Virus record (IMG/VR): IMGVR_UViG_3300044275_000090
Coordinates: 1 to 5,824 of that record
Source: a virus
DNA: 5,824 bases
Direction: 5' to 3' (one strand)
Part shown: one piece after another, positions 1-5,824 of the stretch
How the letters are laid out: every line of letters starts with the position of its first letter
Position numbering within the stretch: the first letter of the stretch is position 1
Program-made: the position numbers and the translations under genes
Notes under the pieces: generated by a model
The model's database searches: none
What the model was told of the DNA's origin: nothing
The model's input: the letters and a program-made list of their open reading frames with translations, nothing else

Positions 1-127
1 CTCCTGCTAGTGGTGTCGCTAAAGTTCTTGCTCGTGGTGGTGCAGGTTATGCTTTGTCTGTTGCAGTTGAACAGTTACTTGGTGCTGTAGATTGGGTTCT
101 AGATCCTGCTAATAATCAGATTAAGTA
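1..127. repeat. Left copy of an exact 127-nt direct terminal repeat (circular-closure overlap)
   Basis: Bases 1-127 match 5698-5824 at every position in a base-by-base comparison (offset 5697). The repeat lies inside a single reading frame that stays open across the junction. Confidence 0.95.
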
Positions 128-1145
128 TTGGGAAACAGATGCTGCTTTGCCCCCTAACACTTGTTCTGCCCCTTATACGCTTAAATATGGTTCTCAAACT
201 TTAACTACTTCACAAGTCATATCAAAAATTAAAGCCGATATTGAAATACGTAATCCTTCCAATTTTGCACAGGATTTTAACGGTGTTAAATCAATTTCTT
301 GTACTGGTTCGCAAGTTACTATTGTTGTCGGTGTAAAGTGGTGTTCAACTAATTGTGCACCCGGTATTGTTTATACTTATGGCGGTGGTGCTGGTGATCG
401 TGTTTCAACTTTCACTATTGTAGGTGAAGCCGAAAAAGAAGAACCTAAAACAATTCCCCTAGAAACTGTTGCCCAACAGGTTATTTCTAATGCCGAATCA
501 GGCGATACAAATGCTCAAGTTGCAACAACTGCAGCTGCTGCTGATATTGTTGCAGAAGCTGAAAAAGATGATGCTAAAGCTCGTCCTATTGCTCAACAAT
601 TAGAATCTTCCGCACAAACTAAGCCTGCCGACGAAGCTGCTGCTGAAAAAGCAAATGAAGCTCAAGGACAATCAAAGCCAAATACTCAAAATCCCGAAGC
701 AATGGATTTGTCTTTAGAATTTCCTGTTTTTTGTGGTTGGGCGCCTTTAGTTTGTGAAGCTGCTCAAGTTGTTATCTCTTTTCCTCAAACAATTACAAAT
801 TGGTGGGAAACAGGAAAATCAAAAGCTGAAGAATGGGCTACATCAATTTCCGAAGCTTGGACAAAAGTAAAAGAAGAATATGCTGATAAACCTGAAGAAA
901 ACACTGATACAGAATTAGATATTCCTGATCTGTCAGATGAATCCATTGATAGTGATATTTCTTTTGGTGGTTCTTGTCCTGCTCCTCTCTCCAGTGACAT
1001 AAATTTTATGGGTCTAAACAAAACTATTGAGTTTTCTTTCGACCCTGTTTGTCAGATTGCTGAATTTATTAAGCCTGTTGTTATTTCTATTTCTGCTTTT
1101 TCTGCTGCCTTAATTGTTGCAGGTATTAGAACGGAGGATGATTAA
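1..1145 (+). CDS. pIII-like adsorption/minor coat protein, 3' part (joined gene 5490..5697+1..1145 = 1353 nt, 450 aa)
   Basis: The frame is open from base 3 to the TAA at 1143-1145. The TTG start at 54 in the track is an artefact of linearisation. The architecture is pIII-like: a Cys-rich N-terminal region with Gly-rich stretches (GGWTLGGG, YGGGAGD), an Ala/Glu/Gln-rich low-complexity linker (about 500-700), and a Cys-containing C-terminal domain ending in a hydrophobic anchor (IKPVVISISAFSAALIVAGI) plus a short charged tail (RTEDD). It sits between the coat gene and the pVI-like gene. Confidence 0.8.
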   Translation, partial: PASGVAKVLARGGAGYALSVAVEQLLGAVDWVLDPANNQIKYWETDAALPPNTCSAPYTLKYGSQTLTTSQVISKIKADIEIRNPSNFAQDFNGVKSISCTGSQVTIVVGVKWCSTNCAPGIVYTYGGGAGDRVSTFTIVGEAEKEEPKTIPLETVAQQVISNAESGDTNAQVATTAAAADIVAEAEKDDAKARPIAQQLESSAQTKPADEAAAEKANEAQGQSKPNTQNPEAMDLSLEFPVFCGWAPLVCEAAQVVISFPQTITNWWETGKSKAEEWATSISEAWTKVKEEYADKPEENTDTELDIPDLSDESIDSDISFGGSCPAPLSSDINFMGLNKTIEFSFDPVCQIAEFIKPVVISISAFSAALIVAGIRTEDD

Positions 1146-1147
1146 AA

Positions 1148-1426
1148 ATGTGGTCTAAGCTTTCCGATCTGTTCACATCACTACAGAAAGGCACATTAAA
1201 AAACGTTCTTACTGGTGCAGGTCTTATGTTGGGTAGTAATGCCATTTTTCTTACTGCCTTTTCTGCTGCCGTTAATGTCTTAAAAAATTCTGTTGGCTCT
1301 GTTTCTGCCGATGTTCTTGGACTTGCTCATTTAGCAGGTTTTGACATTGCAATGTCTTTAATTCTTGGCGCTATCGTCACACGTTTAACCCTAAATTCGC
1401 AAAAGCTAATGTTGAAAAAAGCATAG
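1148..1426 (+). CDS. pVI-like minor coat / virion-cap membrane protein (92 aa; resembles the DUF2523 type found next to zot in many inoviruses)
   Basis: GGAGG at 1133-1137 and an ATG 2 nt after the upstream stop suggest translational coupling. The protein is small with two or three hydrophobic segments (GAGLMLGSNAIFLTAFSAAV; LGLAHLAGFDIAMSLILGAIV). Its position between the pIII-like and pI/Zot-like genes is the canonical gVI slot. The family assignment comes from memory of the sequence pattern, not from a search. Confidence 0.65.
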   Translation: MWSKLSDLFTSLQKGTLKNVLTGAGLMLGSNAIFLTAFSAAVNVLKNSVGSVSADVLGLAHLAGFDIAMSLILGAIVTRLTLNSQKLMLKKA

Positions 1427-1494
1427 CGACCAAAAGACATCCGCATCCGTCATCCCGTCGGCTCGCGCGGGTGCGGTGCGGTGTCTATGGTCGC
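1426..1494 (+). other. GC-rich imperfect hairpin with periodic single-T bulges; candidate packaging signal, complementary-strand origin or mRNA attenuator
   Basis: GCGACCA (1426-1432) pairs with TGGTCGC (1488-1494). The inner stem segments AGACA/CCGCA/CCG/CA/CCCG/CG pair with the 3' arm, giving about 28 bp in total. Unpaired T residues sit at 1440, 1446, 1450, 1453 and 1458, all on the 5' arm, and the loop is 1461-1465. By my count 46 of 69 bases are G+C, in an otherwise AT-rich genome. Confidence 0.6.
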
Positions 1495-1510
1495 AAAAGG
1501 AGAATAAATA

Positions 1511-2920
1511 ATGTTGCATTTGATTACTGGTACACCTGGTGCAGGAAAAACCCTTTATGCCGTTTCACTCATTGTTAAATATGAAGATGCTAACGAACGT
1601 GCTTTGATTTATAACGCTGCTGCGCTTAAACATAATAAAGAATTAATCGAGAAACATAATCTTGCTGACTATTTTGCTTCGTACTCTTACTTTAGTAAAA
1701 AGACTAAGGAACAAGAAACCGTTTTATTTGAGCCTGATCATTTTGATTATCTCAATGATCAATTACGTACTGAAAACATATTTTTAGACATTCAGTTTTA
1801 TAACGGTATTTGTAAGATTATTAAAAATGATCTTGATCTTGATCTTAAAACCCTCAAAGACGTTCGCCATATCTACGCCAATATCGACGGTTTAAAAGTT
1901 CCTAATGTTCGACCTATTGAAATTGATTGGCGCAAATGTCCTGATGGTTCAATTATTTTCTATGATGAAATTCAGCTCATCTATGAATATTCAACCGACA
2001 ATAAACAAGACAAAGAAAATATTGTTAAAGAATTAACTATTCACCGACATAGAGCATTTGATATTTATGGAATTACTCAATTTCCTTCACTGGTCCATAC
2101 CAATTATAGGGCTGTTGTTGGGTTACATTATCACTTGCATCGTGGGTGGGGTGCGCCTTCTGCCACCGTTTACGTTTGGGCAAACTGTCGAGATAAGCCT
2201 AATAGCTTGGGGAACAAGCTTACTGCTGAACGTGATTTTCGATTTAACTATCCTAAACGATTGTATCAATACTACGAGTCTGCAACAGCCAACACAGTTA
2301 AGCTGCGTGTACCTCTTAAATTATTCGCAATCCTTATTATTCCATTACTCGGATTATTTATGGTTGGTAATATGCTCTTTGGCGGTGGTAATAATTTCTT
2401 GGGTACAATCTTTGGCTCTAAAGAAAAAACAGAACAGGTAACAAAAAATGAAACTACTTCTAATCCATCCGTTAATAATTCTAGCTCTAATCTTTCTCCT
2501 TCCAGTGATCAAAAGGCTATGGATTTATCGTTAGAATGTCGAAAGGCAGTTAATTTAGAAAAGCCTGAATGTATTAAATGGTTTGATGATCTTTCTAAAA
2601 ATGGTTCTTCCGTTACTTCTACTGGTCAAGTTGTTCAAACTGTTTCTTATAATCCCAACAAGCCTTATGATTTTGAATATCAGCCACAAGTACAACCAAC
2701 AGATTTCCCCCGCATGTCAGGTGTGATTAAGCTCTCCAGTGGCAAACTTGTTGCCATTGATCAGCAGGGCAACTATATGACAGGTATTTCACAACAAGAT
2801 TGTCTAAGATGGTTAGATGGTTATCGTCCTTTTAATTATTTTGCTTCATCACCACAGCAACAGAGGGAGCGGAGTGCTCCCGAACAATCACAATTGAATC
2901 CTGAAACTTCTTCTCTCTGA
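1511..2920 (+). CDS. zot: Zot / pI-family filamentous-phage assembly ATPase (469 aa)
   Basis: AAGGAG at 1498-1503 lies 7 nt before the ATG. Walker A is GTPGAGKT (1529-1552) and Walker B is IIFYDEIQ. The Zot-typical block HRHRAFDIYGITQ is present. A single TM segment (LKLFAILIIPLLGLFMVGNMLF, about aa 269-290) is followed by a Ser/Asn-rich linker and a periplasmic C-terminal domain. It lies directly downstream of the pVI-like gene. Confidence 0.9.
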   Translation: MLHLITGTPGAGKTLYAVSLIVKYEDANERALIYNAAALKHNKELIEKHNLADYFASYSYFSKKTKEQETVLFEPDHFDYLNDQLRTENIFLDIQFYNGICKIIKNDLDLDLKTLKDVRHIYANIDGLKVPNVRPIEIDWRKCPDGSIIFYDEIQLIYEYSTDNKQDKENIVKELTIHRHRAFDIYGITQFPSLVHTNYRAVVGLHYHLHRGWGAPSATVYVWANCRDKPNSLGNKLTAERDFRFNYPKRLYQYYESATANTVKLRVPLKLFAILIIPLLGLFMVGNMLFGGGNNFLGTIFGSKEKTEQVTKNETTSNPSVNNSSSNLSPSSDQKAMDLSLECRKAVNLEKPECIKWFDDLSKNGSSVTSTGQVVQTVSYNPNKPYDFEYQPQVQPTDFPRMSGVIKLSSGKLVAIDQQGNYMTGISQQDCLRWLDGYRPFNYFASSPQQQRERSAPEQSQLNPETSSL

Positions 2921-2944
2921 TTACAAGCTCCCTTATGATCTCAA

Positions 2945-2967
2945 GCGGGATTTACAGAGCGTCCCGC
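2945..2967 (+). other. GC-rich stem-loop in the large intergenic region (origin or recombination-site candidate)
   Basis: GCGGGA (2945-2950) and TCCCGC (2962-2967) flank an 11-nt loop. A further GC-rich stretch GGGCGCG follows. It stands out compositionally in AT-rich non-coding DNA. Confidence 0.4.
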
Positions 2968-2988
2968 ATGGGCGCGAACTGAGGGAAT

Positions 2989-3078
2989 ATGGATTTTATT
3001 AAATGGTGCCTTAAATTTTTCATTATGCTGTTAGTTTTTGGCTTTCTTATTAGATTTTTTTACAGCTTTGTTTTATAG
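2989..3078 (+). CDS. Hypothetical 29-aa hydrophobic mini-protein (pVII/pIX-size candidate), absent from the ORF track
   Basis: The ATG at 2989 runs to the TAG at 3076-3078 and encodes MDFIKWCLKFFIMLLVFGFLIRFFYSFVL. GAGGGA lies just upstream at short spacing. The initiation context GGGAATATGGA resembles that of the other mini-ORF at 5443 (GGGATATATGGA). Caveat: a T-rich strand readily gives hydrophobic ORFs by chance. Confidence 0.35.
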   Translation: MDFIKWCLKFFIMLLVFGFLIRFFYSFVL

Positions 3079-3084
3079 TTAATC

Positions 3085-3112
3085 AAAATGTTTACATGAC
3101 AACAAACATTTT
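3085..3112. promoter_or_regulatory. Inverted repeat holding a 14/16 copy of the 4600-4615 operator palindrome, upstream of rep
   Basis: AAAATGTTT (3085-3093) and AAACATTTT (3104-3112) are exact reverse complements around a 10-nt loop. TGTTTACATGACAACA (3089-3104) differs at 2 of 16 positions from TGTTGTCATGACAACA (4600-4615). Confidence 0.5.
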
Positions 3113-3120
3113 TAAGGACG

Positions 3121-3152
3121 AAAAAAAACCTGAACGGCAATTCAGGCTTTTT
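3121..3152 (+). terminator. Weak bidirectional-looking intrinsic terminator or attenuator between the structural operon and rep
   Basis: The element reads A8 (3121-3128), CCTGAA (3129-3134), a 6-nt loop, TTCAGG (3141-3146), C, then T5 (3148-3152). The stem is only 6 bp, so strength is doubtful. Confidence 0.35.
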
Positions 3153-3190
3153 CGGTGAATTTGTGCTTGCGACACTGGATATATTAAACA

Positions 3191-4360
3191 ATGGATTCCT
3201 CTTTAAGTCAAATCAATACCCCAAAAATCGACGCCCTTGGTATATTTACGAAATCTCAGTCCACGCCCGAAAACAAAGGCTTTCAGAGGGTTCATGATTT
3301 TTTATTACAAGATCAATCAGCAAAGCTTTTGCCCCTTGAAAGAGTCACTAATTGTTTAAAAAGACGCATTGATAAATCTAAAGGTCGTTTCGTTAAATAC
3401 AATGAAGAAAGATGTAAAGCTCACTGGAGTAATGTTCAACGATGCGGTTCTATTTGGACTTGCCCTGTCTGTGCTAAACAAATTACTGAAAAACGTCGTG
3501 AAGAATTAAAGCAAGGTGTTAAAACTTGGAAAGATCGTTTTCAGGGTGGAATTCTTCTTTTAACTCTTACAAATAGTCATTCTGCTAGTCATTCTCTCCG
3601 TTCTCTTATTGCAGGACAAAAAAAGGCCTTAGGCTATTTCTTTGGTGATCGGAAAGGTAAGTTTCTTTTAGATGATTGTCTAGGTCGTGAATATCAAGTA
3701 CGTGCTTTTGAAGTTACTCACGGTAAAAATGGTTGGCATCCTCATTATCATATTTTGATTTTTACAAATGGTCAGCCTGTTGAAAATTTCTTTGAATTAA
3801 AACAATCCCTTTCTAAACACTGGATTAACTGCTGTCAAAAAGCAAATCTCCCCCTTCCATCCCTTCAACATGGTTTAGATATTCGTGATGGTTCTTATGC
3901 TGAACAATATGTCTCTAAATGGGGTGTTGAAAGTGAATTAACAAAAGGTCATATCAAAAAAGGTCGTGAAGGTGGTTTAACTCCTTTCGATCTGCTTCAA
4001 TCTTCTATGCTTGAACATGAATTATCTGAACAACATGGAAAGCTTTATCAGGAATTTGGTGTTGCTTTTAAAGGTGCTCGTCAATTGGTTTGGTCACGTG
4101 GTCTTAAAAAGCTTTTAGAAATTGAAGAAAAAACAGATGAAGAACTAGCAGAAGAAACAGAAAACATGGGTATTACTTTAGAAGAAGTACCACAATTAAT
4201 TTTTTCATTGTTATGTAAATATCAAAAACGTCATACATATTTAACTGCACTGGAGAATGATTACAGCTCAGGGAACTACGGCACAATCACCAGTGAAGCC
4301 TATTTATTAATAGAGGATTTAGCAAAAAGAGAAATTGCTTTTATTGAATCACACTATTAA
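3191..4360 (+). CDS. Rolling-circle replication initiator, HUH endonuclease of the pC194/pUB110 (Rep_1-like) type (389 aa)
   Basis: The motif order matches pC194-family Rep proteins as I recall them. The motifs are CGSIWTCPVCAKQITEKRR (compare RFCPVCAWRKARK), ILLLTLTNSH (compare FIFLTLTTPN), the HUH motif WHPHYHILIF (3737-3763; compare NPHFHVLIAV), the Tyr motif AEQYVSKWG (compare EMAKYSGKD) and RQLVWSRGLKK (compare RLLVYSGLFKE). Confidence 0.85.
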   Translation: MDSSLSQINTPKIDALGIFTKSQSTPENKGFQRVHDFLLQDQSAKLLPLERVTNCLKRRIDKSKGRFVKYNEERCKAHWSNVQRCGSIWTCPVCAKQITEKRREELKQGVKTWKDRFQGGILLLTLTNSHSASHSLRSLIAGQKKALGYFFGDRKGKFLLDDCLGREYQVRAFEVTHGKNGWHPHYHILIFTNGQPVENFFELKQSLSKHWINCCQKANLPLPSLQHGLDIRDGSYAEQYVSKWGVESELTKGHIKKGREGGLTPFDLLQSSMLEHELSEQHGKLYQEFGVAFKGARQLVWSRGLKKLLEIEEKTDEELAEETENMGITLEEVPQLIFSLLCKYQKRHTYLTALENDYSSGNYGTITSEAYLLIEDLAKREIAFIESHY

Positions 4361-4531
4361 TTCTCCTTTCTCAACTTTGCATTTTTCCAAAGCTTTTATT
4401 AGTACGTCGTGAAGGATTTCACTATCTTTCATGACGTTCTTTCCTAGGTCTAAACGTTGCCTATTTAGTTCTTCGCTTATCTTTTTTAGAAGCTCATCTT
4501 CTATCTTCTTTACTCGTAAATACGCCATCAT
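4349..4531 (-). CDS. Small transcriptional regulator, ribbon-helix-helix (Arc/CopG-like) candidate (60 aa)
   Basis: This is the only credible - strand gene. It is transcribed divergently from the structural operon, out of the operator-rich region. The pattern is a beta-strand-like N-terminus (AYLRVKKI), helix A (EDELLKKISEELNRQRL), a G-containing turn (DLGKNVMKDSE) and helix B (ILHDVLIKALEK). This resembles Arc (ENGRSVNSEIYQRVMESF). The fold call is by eye only. Confidence 0.55.
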   Translation of the reverse strand: MMAYLRVKKIEDELLKKISEELNRQRLDLGKNVMKDSEILHDVLIKALEKCKVEKGELIV

Positions 4532-4568
4532 TTTGAAATCTCTTAAAAAAAACTCAGTTTTTTAGTGT

Positions 4569-4619
4569 AATTTATTGTTGTCATTTCGTCTTGACAACTT
4601 GTTGTCATGACAACATAAT
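4569..4619. promoter_or_regulatory. Divergent sigma70-type promoters with overlapping -35 boxes and four operator half-sites
   Basis: The + promoter is TTGACA (4591-4596), a 17-nt spacer, then CATAAT (4614-4619). The - promoter is TTGTCA (complement of 4592-4597), a 17-nt spacer, then TAAATT (complement of 4569-4574). TGTTGTCA half-sites lie at 4576-4583 and 4600-4607. TGACAAC(A) half-sites lie at 4592-4598 and 4608-4615. Positions 4600-4615 form a perfect 16-bp palindrome filling the + promoter spacer, and 4576-4583 sits in the - promoter spacer. Confidence 0.65.
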
Positions 4620-4665
4620 ATTTCGTACAAACTTTGTGATAACAGACAAACAGAAGGGTAAAGAA

Positions 4666-4908
4666 ATGGACGGAATTAAAGTTTTAGTAGAAGGCGTTAA
4701 ATTAAATACATTCACATCAAAAAAAGGTAATGACCTCTTTACTTTTGAAGTTGTCGAGCCTGTAACTAAGTTTGTTGCATATACAAACAATTCTGAAAAA
4801 GGTCAGTTGGCTGATCTTGCGGAAAGTGGTGAATTTGTCGATTTACAACTGATTCTAAAAGGTGATCGTTTGTATTTTGCTAATGCTCAAATTTCTAATG
4901 CTCAGTAA
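4666..4908 (+). CDS. pV-like ssDNA-binding protein (80 aa)
   Basis: The ATG at 4666 is preceded by AGAAGGG 7-8 nt upstream. The tracked TTG start at 4591 coincides with the promoter -35 box and is rejected. The size (80 aa) and the slot (first gene of the structural operon, before the coat genes) fit gene V. The N-terminus MDGIKVLVEGVKLNTFTSKKGNDLF resembles M13 gVp MIKVEIKPSQAQFTTRSGVSRQGKPY. Confidence 0.6.
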   Translation: MDGIKVLVEGVKLNTFTSKKGNDLFTFEVVEPVTKFVAYTNNSEKGQLADLAESGEFVDLQLILKGDRLYFANAQISNAQ

Positions 4909-4929
4909 TTTTTACTGAGCGTTTTTTTT
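4900..4929 (+). terminator. Rho-independent terminator/attenuator overlapping the ssb stop codon
   Basis: GCTCAGTAA (4900-4908) and TTACTGAGC (4912-4920) are perfect 9-nt complements around TTT. They are followed by G and then T8 (4922-4929). Confidence 0.7.
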
Positions 4930-4941
4930 GGATTTTAAAAA

Positions 4942-5130
4942 ATGGCAAAGGTCTGTGAAATCGTTAATGAACTTACAAACCAATGCGATCTATGGATTGA
5001 TCAAGTTTCTTTGATTGATCAAATGGCAATAACAAAAGCGCAAATGATTATGTTGGGGACTCCCATTATTGGGATTTATGGCTTGATCATCGCTTTTGCT
5101 CTTTTCAATAACTTTTCCAAGAGGGCTTAA
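4942..5130 (+). CDS. Small membrane protein (62 aa) in the gVII/gIX slot; possible minor coat or assembly protein
   Basis: The ORF lies between the ssb-like and major coat genes. It has a C-terminal TM segment (MLGTPIIGIYGLIIAFALF) followed by the basic tail NNFSKRA. No clear Shine-Dalgarno element is present. An internal ATG (M28) would give a 35-aa product of pVII/pIX size. Confidence 0.5.
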   Translation: MAKVCEIVNELTNQCDLWIDQVSLIDQMAITKAQMIMLGTPIIGIYGLIIAFALFNNFSKRA

Positions 5131-5132
5131 TC

Positions 5133-5396
5133 ATGGAAAACAATCAAACTGCAATTGAGTTGCAAAAAAAACCTACTTTTGTTTCTCGCGTTAAAGATGC
5201 TGCATTTGTAGGTGCTGTTACTGGTTCTGCATTGATGCTTACTTCAGGTGCTAATGCTGCTGCTTCTTTGGACTTCACAGGTGCAACAGAAGAATTAACA
5301 GGCGTACAAACTGCCGTTGTTGGCATTATCGGTACTCTTGTTGTCTTGATCGGTATCGGCATTGCTTGGTCATACTTCAAACGTACAGCCAAGTAA
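5133..5396 (+). CDS. pVIII-like major coat protein precursor (87 aa; predicted 45-aa mature protein)
   Basis: GAGGG at 5121-5125 lies 7 nt before the ATG. The leader ends in the signal-peptidase motif SGANA/AAS. The mature part AASLDFTGATEELTGVQTAVVGIIGTLVVLIGIGIAWSYFKRTAK has the classic layout: an acidic N-terminus (D, E, E), a hydrophobic helix and a basic C-terminus (K, R, K). A strong terminator follows immediately. Confidence 0.85.
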   Translation: MENNQTAIELQKKPTFVSRVKDAAFVGAVTGSALMLTSGANAAASLDFTGATEELTGVQTAVVGIIGTLVVLIGIGIAWSYFKRTAK

Positions 5397-5404
5397 TTGG
5401 TATT

Positions 5405-5433
5405 AACGCCTCCGCTTGGGGGCGTTTTTATTT
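5405..5433 (+). terminator. Strong rho-independent terminator after the major coat gene
   Basis: AACGCCTCC (5405-5413) pairs with GGGGGCGTT (5418-5426), giving 8 Watson-Crick pairs plus one G-T, around the loop GCTT. The trailing sequence is TTTATTT. The placement matches the terminator after gene VIII in Ff phages. Confidence 0.8.
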
Positions 5434-5442
5434 GGGGGATAT

Positions 5443-5526
5443 ATGGAAGAACAAGCATCAATTTTATACTGGATTCCTTTGGTGGTCACATGGGTCGCAT
5501 TACATCTTTTAGCAAGCAAGTTATAG
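5443..5526 (+). CDS. Hypothetical 27-aa hydrophobic mini-protein (pVII/pIX-size candidate), absent from the ORF track; overlaps the pIII-like start out of frame
   Basis: The ATG at 5443 runs to the TAG at 5524-5526 and encodes MEEQASILYWIPLVVTWVALHLLASKL, with an acidic N-terminus, a single hydrophobic helix and a basic end. GGGGGA lies at 5434-5439, just upstream. Its stop lies 34 nt inside the pIII-like ORF, which would allow coupled translation. Confidence 0.4.
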   Translation: MEEQASILYWIPLVVTWVALHLLASKL

Positions 5527-5824
5527 TTTTTTTTCTTGTTACAGCCTTAATTATTCGTCCTACTTTTGCTGCCAATGTTGGCGGTTGGACTTTGGGCGGT
5601 GGTGTTGCTCAAGGTGCTTCTACTGTTTATGAGGGTACAAAAAAAGTCGTTATTGATGGTGTTGATTATATAAAAAAAGGCACTGCAAAAATTACACCTC
5701 CTGCTAGTGGTGTCGCTAAAGTTCTTGCTCGTGGTGGTGCAGGTTATGCTTTGTCTGTTGCAGTTGAACAGTTACTTGGTGCTGTAGATTGGGTTCTAGA
5801 TCCTGCTAATAATCAGATTAAGTA
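5490..5824 (+). CDS. pIII-like adsorption/minor coat protein, 5' part (signal peptide and N-terminus); continues across the circular junction into 1-1145
   Basis: The ATG at 5490 is in the same frame as tracked ORF 54..1145 (5490 and 5751=54+5697 are both 0 mod 3), with no stop through 5824. The N-terminus MGRITSFSKQVIVFFLVTALIIRPTFA/ANVGG has a basic n-region, a hydrophobic core and an A-x-A-like cleavage site. A GGTGG Shine-Dalgarno-like element lies 4 nt upstream. The ORF track missed it because the ORF runs off the window end. Confidence 0.75.
   Translation, partial: MGRITSFSKQVIVFFLVTALIIRPTFAANVGGWTLGGGVAQGASTVYEGTKKVVIDGVDYIKKGTAKITPPASGVAKVLARGGAGYALSVAVEQLLGAVDWVLDPANNQIK
5698..5824. 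repeat. Right copy of the exact 127-nt direct terminal repeat
   Basis: Identical to 1-127. An exact end overlap of this kind is what a circular molecule yields when written out as a linear contig. Confidence 0.95.

Follow-up and report, generated by a model that had tools for sequence, protein, structure and literature searches.

The window analysed here, a 5,824-nt stretch of DNA (positions 1 to 5,824 of the IMG/VR virus record IMGVR_UViG_3300044275_000090), comprises the circular genome of a small inovirus, 5,697 nt in length, together with a 127-nt overlap (1-127 = 5698-5824), and carries a 69-nt hairpin on its + strand (1426-1494) between the genes for a pVI-like minor coat protein and a Zot (pI-like) assembly ATPase. 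The hairpin has a well-defined structure, is unique in its genome, covaries among relatives, is found on the + strand throughout its family, is portable between replicons and is maintained independently of zot. We propose that it is a cis-acting structural signal of the packaged (+) strand, most likely the packaging (morphogenetic) signal, a reading to which we assign a probability of roughly 0.45. To judge from sequence, the host genus is Acinetobacter; homologues of the Zot protein are found at 93% in A. junii, 90% in Acinetobacter sp. BSP-53, 73% in Acinetobacter sp. WCHAc060025 and 64% in A. baumannii.

Structure and stability of the hairpin

The first nucleotide of the hairpin is the final one of the pVI-like stop codon, and its 3' end lies just before the zot Shine-Dalgarno sequence, that is, precisely between the two genes where an earlier note, made from the letters of this DNA alone, had placed it. 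Folding of 1420-1500 as single-stranded DNA (ssDNA) and as RNA, which that note had suggested, gave an identical minimum-energy structure (-27.9 and -43.7 kcal/mol, respectively), and this reproduces exactly the 69-nt element of about 28 bp with five single-T bulges, all on the 5' arm (1440, 1446, 1450, 1453 and 1458), that had been described. The basal helix is formed by GCGACCA (1426-1432) and TGGTCGC (1488-1494); above it follow an AA/A internal loop and then helices of 5, 5, 3, 2, 4 and 2 bp between the bulged Ts. The C-rich 5' arm with its CA[T]CCG modules spans 1435-1460, the pentaloop GCTCG, which is closed by a C-G pair and is near-invariant in the family defined below, occupies 1461-1465, and the G/T-rich 3' arm (1466-1486) is free of bulges and contains CGGGTGCGGTG (1468-1478). 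The proposal that a 6-mer repeat pairs here against a 5-mer repeat holds for three modules, in which CA[T]CC(C)G pairs with CGG(G)TG, but not for the two remaining T bulges, which fall between modules. The module bulges (1440, 1446 and 1453) are spaced by 6 and 7 nt along the 5' arm and would, we infer, fall on alternate faces of the helix.

The stability of this structure is far greater than expected from its composition: shuffled sequences fold as ssDNA with a mean of -12.0 kcal/mol (sd 2.1; z = -7.7) and none of the 200 is as stable, while the RNA fold has z = -6.6. The minus strand folds to -27.3 kcal/mol, so that for the hairpin of the window itself the two strands are nearly equal. When a 90-nt window was slid around the whole circle, the hairpin ranked first with -27.9 kcal/mol against -13.7 for the runner-up, the genome-wide mean being -6.0 (sd 3.3). 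Its G+C content is about 63% over a 70-nt window and that of most other 70-nt windows of the genome about 27-46%, in agreement with its earlier description as a GC-rich element in an AT-rich genome.

Conservation and covariation

Relatives were gathered through their Zot proteins from IMG/VR, metagenomes and assemblies, and all those examined down to about 61% Zot identity have the hairpin at the same junction of pVI stop codon and zot Shine-Dalgarno sequence; exact and degenerate pattern scans of IMG/VR recovered close relatives only. A covariance model built from 17 sequences was used to search 364 kb comprising related phages, plasmids, f1, IKe and Pf3, and it recovered 22 instances (18 of them distinct), all on the + strand, with nothing else matching in these 364 kb; the hairpin of the window scores 91.5 bits. 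The family alignment displays compensatory changes in 12 of 26 pairs, the covariation that the earlier note had recommended looking for, and pairing is intact in 92% of its cells as opposed to 21-61% when the partners are slid. In 500 shuffles the observed value was never reached in four of five measures, and the number of further pair types was reached by 13. The loop is GCTCG or TCTCG in every member that retains the apical part, and core identity is 83-98% where flanking third codon positions are at 35-78%.

The bulges are conserved in a graded fashion. Their columns are filled in nearly all 18 distinct members (two are gapped at one column), with the three basal bulges varying between T, A, G and C, and the two apical ones being T in 17 of 18 and in 12 of 13 members. 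Two relatives, L003 and L174, have a pair of substitutions (A to G on one arm, T to A on the other) by which a bulge is moved one base along and not closed. The claim that the bulge pattern is selected and not accidental is thus supported, with the qualification that T is near-constant only at the two apical positions; the architecture, bulges included, is under selection. The basal helix is variable or degenerate among relatives and reads GCGACC/GGGAGC in L002 and L130, where it aligns as a tandem G.A mismatch. As the constraint on the loop and the upper stem is one of sequence as well, it suggests that they are read by a protein rather than being kept for mere stability. A Moraxella sp. prophage (L179), whose Zot is 56% identical, has a 34-nt A+T-rich pVI-zot gap without a hairpin, and the junction hairpin may be confined to phages of Acinetobacter.

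Other hairpin types in more distant relatives

More distant inoviruses, with Zot proteins 36-55% identical, mostly have a pVI-zot gap of 65-98 nt holding other G+C-rich hairpins. The junction hairpin ranks first or second in 14 of the 17 related contigs that have such a gap, and the top hairpin of the A. baumannii phage M02 likewise lies in its DUF2523-zot gap (2399-2457, -30.8 kcal/mol). Relatives in which pVI and zot overlap are devoid of a junction hairpin, the two genes being coupled through TAATG; one of these, phage L009, has a hairpin with the apex GAGGGCTCGCAG in its intergenic region instead, directly 5' of an Ff-like (+) origin hairpin. The rule is hence a single G+C-rich hairpin per phage genome, at either of two sites, the remaining strong hairpins in these genomes being A+T-rich, terminator-like stems or forked and dif-like (CTX-type attP). 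The + strand is the more stable one in 25 of 30 hairpins of all types (Wilcoxon p = 5e-4); they appear to be selected as single strands and not as duplex palindromes.

At least six unrelated hairpin types occur in Acinetobacter, each tracking a phage morphogenesis clade. A second family, with the invariant apex GAGGGC[T/A]CGCA, is represented at the phage L005 junction, intergenically in phage L009, in the small circle L153 and in Rep_1 plasmids, and has the core GGCTCGC in common with the bulged family. The hairpin stays beside pVI and zot while the replication modules differ: these are of the Rep_1 type in the window and L174, Rep_trans in A. junii, A. baumannii, L173 and L177, Rep_trans with an integrase in L176, and an integrase in L178. 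Gaps between pVI and zot in further clades are filled by (CGA)n and (GGA)n arms (L012, 773-830; L014; L019-L021; L135-L144, for example L136, 3890-3985), which run antiparallel with a C-G pair and then tandem G.A/A.G mismatches every three bases, and have loops such as GCA or TTT. Standard energy models barely score such stems, and the minus strand would have C.T mismatches. The basal helix of L002 and L130 has a CGAC/GGAG arrangement like that of these arms.

Small circles without zot

A blastn search of PLSDB with the 69-nt hairpin retrieved two tiny Acinetobacter circles. p94-2-p5 (L151, 1,601 bp) encodes Rep only, with a rep gene 72-82% identical in DNA to that of the window, and its hairpin core, which is 95% identical, lies just 5' of CATGACAACTTGTGATCTTGAT. 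p4_010005 (L152, NZ_CP032130.1, 1,398 bp) has no rep gene, and its hairpin lies immediately 5' of GTCCACTTATTTAATAGTGGACTCT, which agrees with the (+) origin core of f1 and IKe in 24 of 26 positions and with the phage L007 origin in 28 of 28. Together with L153 (NZ_CP048018.1) and L154 (NZ_CP029395.2), L152 forms a set of Rep-less circles of 1.38-1.42 kb from three Acinetobacter species, each bearing a (+) origin hairpin of the Ff/IKe type, GTCCAC..TTTAATAGTGGACTCT, and necessarily reliant on a pII-type Rep provided in trans. Their origins are mutually 92-97% identical and they have two small conserved hairpins in common, and one slot is occupied by three different large hairpins, that of L153 being of the same family as the junction hairpin of phage L005. 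They also have an open reading frame (ORF) for an RHH-like protein of 73-80 aa and a conserved 88-nt hairpin (854-941 in L152) that folds better on the opposite strand.

In pCZH-5-5 (L159, 2,121 bp) a pVI-like gene is followed by a junction hairpin, 8 nt and a (+) origin hairpin, an arrangement that marks it as a natural deletion derivative from which zot has gone and in which the hairpin, here of another type, was kept. Most of the Rep-only rolling-circle plasmids examined have a hairpin of this or a related type just 5' of the origin. The hairpin is thus a portable element, retained upon loss of zot and travelling with origins, and its maintenance in circles without zot argues that a device specific to zot expression is not its main role. 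The Rep_1 plasmid L160, which possesses the conserved a-c' block described further below, has no large hairpin, and for this reason the hairpin is not indispensable for rolling-circle replication. A. towneri strain 205 also has a Rep-only circle (L155), and some small Acinetobacter circles are close to a rolling-circle backbone related to SPHINX/BMMF group 2.

We tentatively raise the possibility that the large G+C-rich hairpins act in Acinetobacter inoviruses as packaging signals which are specific to a lineage and can be exchanged, and that the tiny 'non-mobilizable' Rep-only and Rep-less circles are inovirus satellites or miniphages that spread by means of a copy of the hairpin of their helper phage. 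If so, the hairpin swaps on the near-identical backbones of L152, L153 and L154, and the diversity of types (bulged, G.A-mismatched and others), would reflect helper switching or an arms race between phage and parasite. A search of the plasmid collection for phages co-resident with the mini-circles identified none. Known inovirus satellites and miniphages (Ff miniphages; Shewanella pDolos) are likewise tiny circles with an origin and cis signals, with or without rep, and without structural genes, and the authors describing pDolos propose that a rolling-circle plasmid needs only a short packaging signal (bioRxiv 10.1101/2023.11.28.569023). The candidate satellites from Acinetobacter (L151-L155 and L159) differ in that their link to phages is a shared hairpin sequence, which is not reported for pDolos.

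Functional interpretation

The same fold scan, applied to f1 and IKe, returned their experimentally defined packaging signals (the position of the latter being taken from the IKe annotation) as single outliers, with z of about -5.7 and -5.8. The earlier note had compared the hairpin to the imperfect + strand hairpins that serve Ff phages (f1/M13/fd) as packaging signal and complementary-strand origin, and this comparison is strengthened, as the scan identifies the known packaging-signal hairpin as its counterpart; a role as a signal on the + strand ssDNA, of one kind or the other, is further favoured by the occurrence of one hairpin per genome, always on the + strand, with a covarying stem, and by its retention beside origins in mini-replicons without zot. 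In f1 (L145) the second most stable + strand hairpin (3301-3390, -19.5 kcal/mol) lies in the 5' part of gene I and not in the intergenic region. The packaging signals of Ff and IKe resemble the hairpin of the window in being imperfect, G+C-rich + strand hairpins of 55-80 nt in a fixed orientation, in being the most stable fold and the only one of their kind per genome, and in the motif CGGGT..GGTG. According to Russel & Model 1989, as cited in bioRxiv 10.1101/2023.12.30.573655, CGGGT closely before GGTG on the ascending limb is the motif of the f1 and IKe packaging signals, and the f1 signal tolerates changes of its loop. The pattern CGGGT N0-3 GGTG occurs once each in the window, f1 and IKe (expected, 0.07-0.10 per genome), always inside the top hairpin, and its sole match in the window is CGGGTGCGGTG, on the descending limb.

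By analogy with these systems, progeny + strands would be coated by the single-strand-binding protein (SSB) of the phage, while the long G+C-rich hairpin would remain duplex and protrude at one end of the complex. Its GCTCG loop, G/T-rich 3' arm (CGGGTGCGGTG) and bulged 5' arm could then be read by small tip proteins and by the Zot/pI ATPase encoded next to it, and this recognition might trigger extrusion and determine which way round the DNA lies in the filament. The bulges may act as specificity determinants, in the form of three near-identical CA[T]CC/GGTG modules and two T-specific bulges near the loop. A location within the morphogenesis cluster would keep the signal linked to its reader proteins through exchanges of the replication module, and small rolling-circle circles with a copy of the hairpin could be packaged by a helper phage. 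The presence of at least six hairpin types tracking phage clades fits diversifying phage proteins better than conserved host enzymes. In Ff, the packaging signal must resist coating by pV, and the (-) origin must be maskable by pV for the switch to ssDNA production.

Several points weigh against a packaging signal. The function is assigned to this phage by analogy, and the site differs from that of the packaging signals of Ff, IKe and Xanthomonas phages: in Ff and IKe the signal lies between the last morphogenesis gene and the origin, a location seen in L009 and the mini-circles, whereas the hairpin of the window is placed between pVI and pI. The G/T-rich limb with CGGGT..GGTG is ascending in f1 and IKe and descending here, and the five regularly spaced bulges of the 5' arm and the conserved GCTCG loop set the hairpin further apart. 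Moreover, hairpins occupy the classical place of a single-strand origin in most Rep-only plasmids, all of which would have to be satellites, the GGCTCGC core across divergent phage clades fits a common host factor equally well, and linkage to pVI and zot follows trivially from physical adjacency. The short hairpin signals of another known system are comparable in being G+C-rich, in that stem and loop bases both matter, and in lying inside or between genes with 'mirror' orientations among relatives; they differ in their size (20-26 nt, with stems of 7-8 bp), their location mostly within the replication gene and their consensus.

The foremost alternative, which we regard as somewhat unlikely, is that the hairpin is the minus origin (complementary-strand or single-strand origin), exposed on the SSB-coated + strand and recruiting host primase, primosome or RNA polymerase. 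A primer made from or near the loop would then copy the 5' arm, and bulges restricted to this arm would favour the primer-template duplex over re-zipping. Such an origin would account well for the small circles: a minimal plasmid needs a single-strand origin and no packaging signal, and the hairpin is oriented with rep and lies just 5' of the origin, the classical position, in the Rep-only circles L151, L155, L162, L163 and L165, as it does in the Rep-less L152-L154; in circles with an Ff-type (+) origin it takes the slot of the f1/IKe minus-origin hairpin, immediately 5' of the nick hairpin. Rolling-circle plasmids can exchange their single-strand origins as cassettes, which would suit the observed swaps, and the strand specificity and the apical core GGCTCGC common to different hairpin types are as expected for a common host reader. 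In the small circles the hairpin resembles the single-strand origins of rolling-circle plasmids (ssoA/U/T/W), phage minus origins and ssi signals in being imperfect, oriented one way on the displaced strand, exchanged in cassette fashion and situated just upstream of the (+) origin. It differs from them in having no RSB, no CS-6 in the loop, no -35/-10-like elements in or at it and no 5'-CTG primase site (there is no CTG across 1400-1530), and in the phage some 1.55 kb separate it from the putative origin; ssoA and ssoU are, besides, much longer than 69 nt. A CS-6-like TAGCGA is present at the base of the hairpin but not in its loop; the CS-6 motif has been reported in putative single-strand origin regions of SPHINX/BMMF group 2 circles, aligned with an A. 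baumannii plasmid (PMC10378824). The phages and L160 are harder to accommodate: the hairpin sits inside the assembly operon and is unmoved when replication modules are swapped, the Rep_1 plasmid L160 replicates without any such hairpin, and at least six unrelated types in one genus, each tracking a clade, would be odd for a signal of conserved host enzymes. The top hairpin of f1 and IKe is the packaging signal and not the minus origin, and, from what is known of Ff, ssDNA production would be harder to switch to if the minus origin resisted the ssDNA-binding protein of the phage. The literature on small Rep_1 Acinetobacter plasmids and on pTS236/SPHINX defines no single-strand origin or hairpin.

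Other explanations are considerably less attractive. One hairpin could serve as packaging signal and minus origin at different stages of the cycle, as both functions are needed, each genome has one strong G+C-rich hairpin, and the Rep-less circles, which need both, carry only this large hairpin and two small ones; this is improbable, since Ff keeps the two signals apart and offers no precedent, and since the second function could fall to the small conserved hairpins a and c'. Similarly improbable, and slightly more so, is that the main role is that of an mRNA element tuning zot by uncoupling of translation, as a barrier to RNase III or 3'-exonucleases, or by attenuation of read-through. The equally good RNA fold (-43.7 kcal/mol), the exact fit between pVI stop codon and zot Shine-Dalgarno sequence in most relatives, and the TAATG overlap that couples pVI and zot in relatives without a gap would all agree with it. 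However, the same family is kept in L151 and L152, which have no zot, and other hairpin types occur in the same slot of L159, also without zot, and beside the origin in L009 with its overlapping pVI and zot; the hairpin has no T tract and was flagged neither as a terminator nor as a promoter, and its loop and upper stem are conserved in sequence far beyond what stability alone requires. The suggestion of the earlier note that the hairpin throttles zot is therefore not borne out as its main function, and a secondary effect on the pVI-zot mRNA may exist. Least credible of all is a selfish or host-derived repeat (REP/MITE-like) or a recombination site (CTX-type attP or integron attC), as which the hairpin might be viewed for its G+C-richness in an A+T-rich genome and for the extrahelical bases on one arm that recall attC sites: tandem prophages keep pVI, hairpin and zot contiguous, and the dif-like forked hairpins of relatives lie elsewhere.

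Searches directed at other element classes were uniformly negative. A scan for the hairpin pattern in 185,579 species genomes (one each) gave 103 single chance matches in G+C-rich genomes, none in a prophage, none longer than about 21 nt and none near phage genes, a result informative solely against a host repeat; with no dispersed copies in it, a host REP/MITE was ruled out. An intrinsic terminator was discarded, the hairpin not being among five terminator-like sites and being followed by AAAAGGAG with no T tract, as was a promoter, none being flagged at the hairpin on either strand. For attP/dif, the window has no dif-like site above chance and the A. junii tandem prophage keeps pVI-hairpin-zot intact; for integron attC, GTTRRRY/RYYYAAC ends and the R''/R' consensus are absent. 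A Haemophilus-type uptake sequence (GTGCGGT, resembling AAGTGCGGT) was dropped with the assignment of the host to Acinetobacter, and a scan of the window against Rfam offered no family matching the hairpin, even with the E threshold relaxed to 1.

Novelty and significance

To our knowledge, neither a packaging signal nor a minus origin has been assigned in any filamentous phage of Acinetobacter. Structural signals on the + strand of inoviruses are familiar as a kind of element; what is new is the position between pVI and pI, the architecture of one-sided bulges with a GCTCG loop, and the sharing of the hairpin with Rep-only and Rep-less Acinetobacter mini-circles. The hairpin family appears to be undescribed in the literature searched, and in the first paper characterising an Acinetobacter filamentous phage (PMC11209303) the words hairpin, stem-loop, intergenic, attP and packaging signal are absent. 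The analysis supplies a precise candidate signal, with a covariance model, loop and bulge determinants and natural minimal constructs in the form of circles of 1.4-2.1 kb. If it is a packaging signal, it would provide the missing part for Acinetobacter phagemids, imply that such signals can reside in the assembly operon beside the gene of their presumed reader ATPase, and offer a route of transmission for abundant small Acinetobacter plasmids typed as non-mobilizable. If it is a minus origin, it would be a single-strand origin of a new type among the rolling-circle replicons of Gram-negative bacteria.

Genomic context and additional elements

All genes of the phage are on the + strand with the exception of one small divergent gene (4349-4531, minus). 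They include those for a TspB-like adsorption protein (54-1145), the DUF2523 pVI-like minor coat protein (1148-1426), whose stop codon TAG (1424-1426) abuts the hairpin, the Zot/pI-like assembly ATPase (1511-2920), with the Shine-Dalgarno sequence AAAGGAG (1495-1501) directly after the hairpin, a Rep_1 rolling-circle initiator (3191-4360) and several small proteins, among them one that is pVIII-like (5133-5396). No GenBank phage matched the whole window in a megablast search.

Certain relatives have two inverted dif-like sites, ATTTCG[C/T]ATAATG ... CATTAT[G/A]CGAAAT, which form a forked hairpin like the attP(+) of CTXphi (L167, ~2740-2850 and 10400-10500; L009, 4058-4222; M02, that is L147, 3891-3980; L016, 2610-2705), and the prophage of A. 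junii is arranged in tandem, repeating every 7,658 bp. As the phage of the window has neither a dif-like site nor an integrase, it may be purely episomal.

A second cis block, outside the hairpin and co-travelling with it in mini-replicons, lies at 2866-2979 on the + strand. It consists of a small hairpin, a (GGGAGC-GGAGT-GCTCCC, 2866-2882), of CTGATTACAA overlapping the zot stop codon (2917-2926), and of another small hairpin, c' (GCGTCCC-GCAT-GGGCGC, ~2958-2976). In general form it is a block of about 110 nt with fixed spacing: GGG(N)GC-GGAGT-GC(N)CCC with a covarying stem, about 48 nt, CTGATTACAA, about 45 nt, and (G)TCCCG-NAT-GGG. It recurs in L151 (983-1060), L152 (591-702), L153, L154, L155, L160, L162, L164 and the RepM plasmids L157 and L158, and on these small rolling-circle and RepM plasmids of Acinetobacter a terminator hairpin often follows CTGATTACAA. 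In phages down to 40% Zot identity CTGATTACA overlaps the zot stop codon. The a-CTGATTACA-c' block might act in priming, in termination or in recombination.

The region 3040-3110 (+ strand) is, from its sequence and iteron matches, probably the double-strand (+) origin for Rep_1: it contains CTTTCTTATTAGAT, which we take to resemble the nick region of the pC194 type, and the iteron-like CATGACAAC at 3095, which is iterated four times beside rep in L151 (897-925). Inverted and direct copies of TTGTCATGACAAC (4569-4622 and 3088-3105) flank the strongest promoter-like site, TTGACA-17-CATAAT (4591-4619), which lies between the small divergent gene and the + strand operon; the repeats around it are probably an operator. 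Three terminator-like hairpins with T tracts are present, one within the zot-rep intergenic region (3129-3146), one after an 80-aa ORF (4897-4923) and one after the pVIII-like gene (5405-5426), as in Ff.

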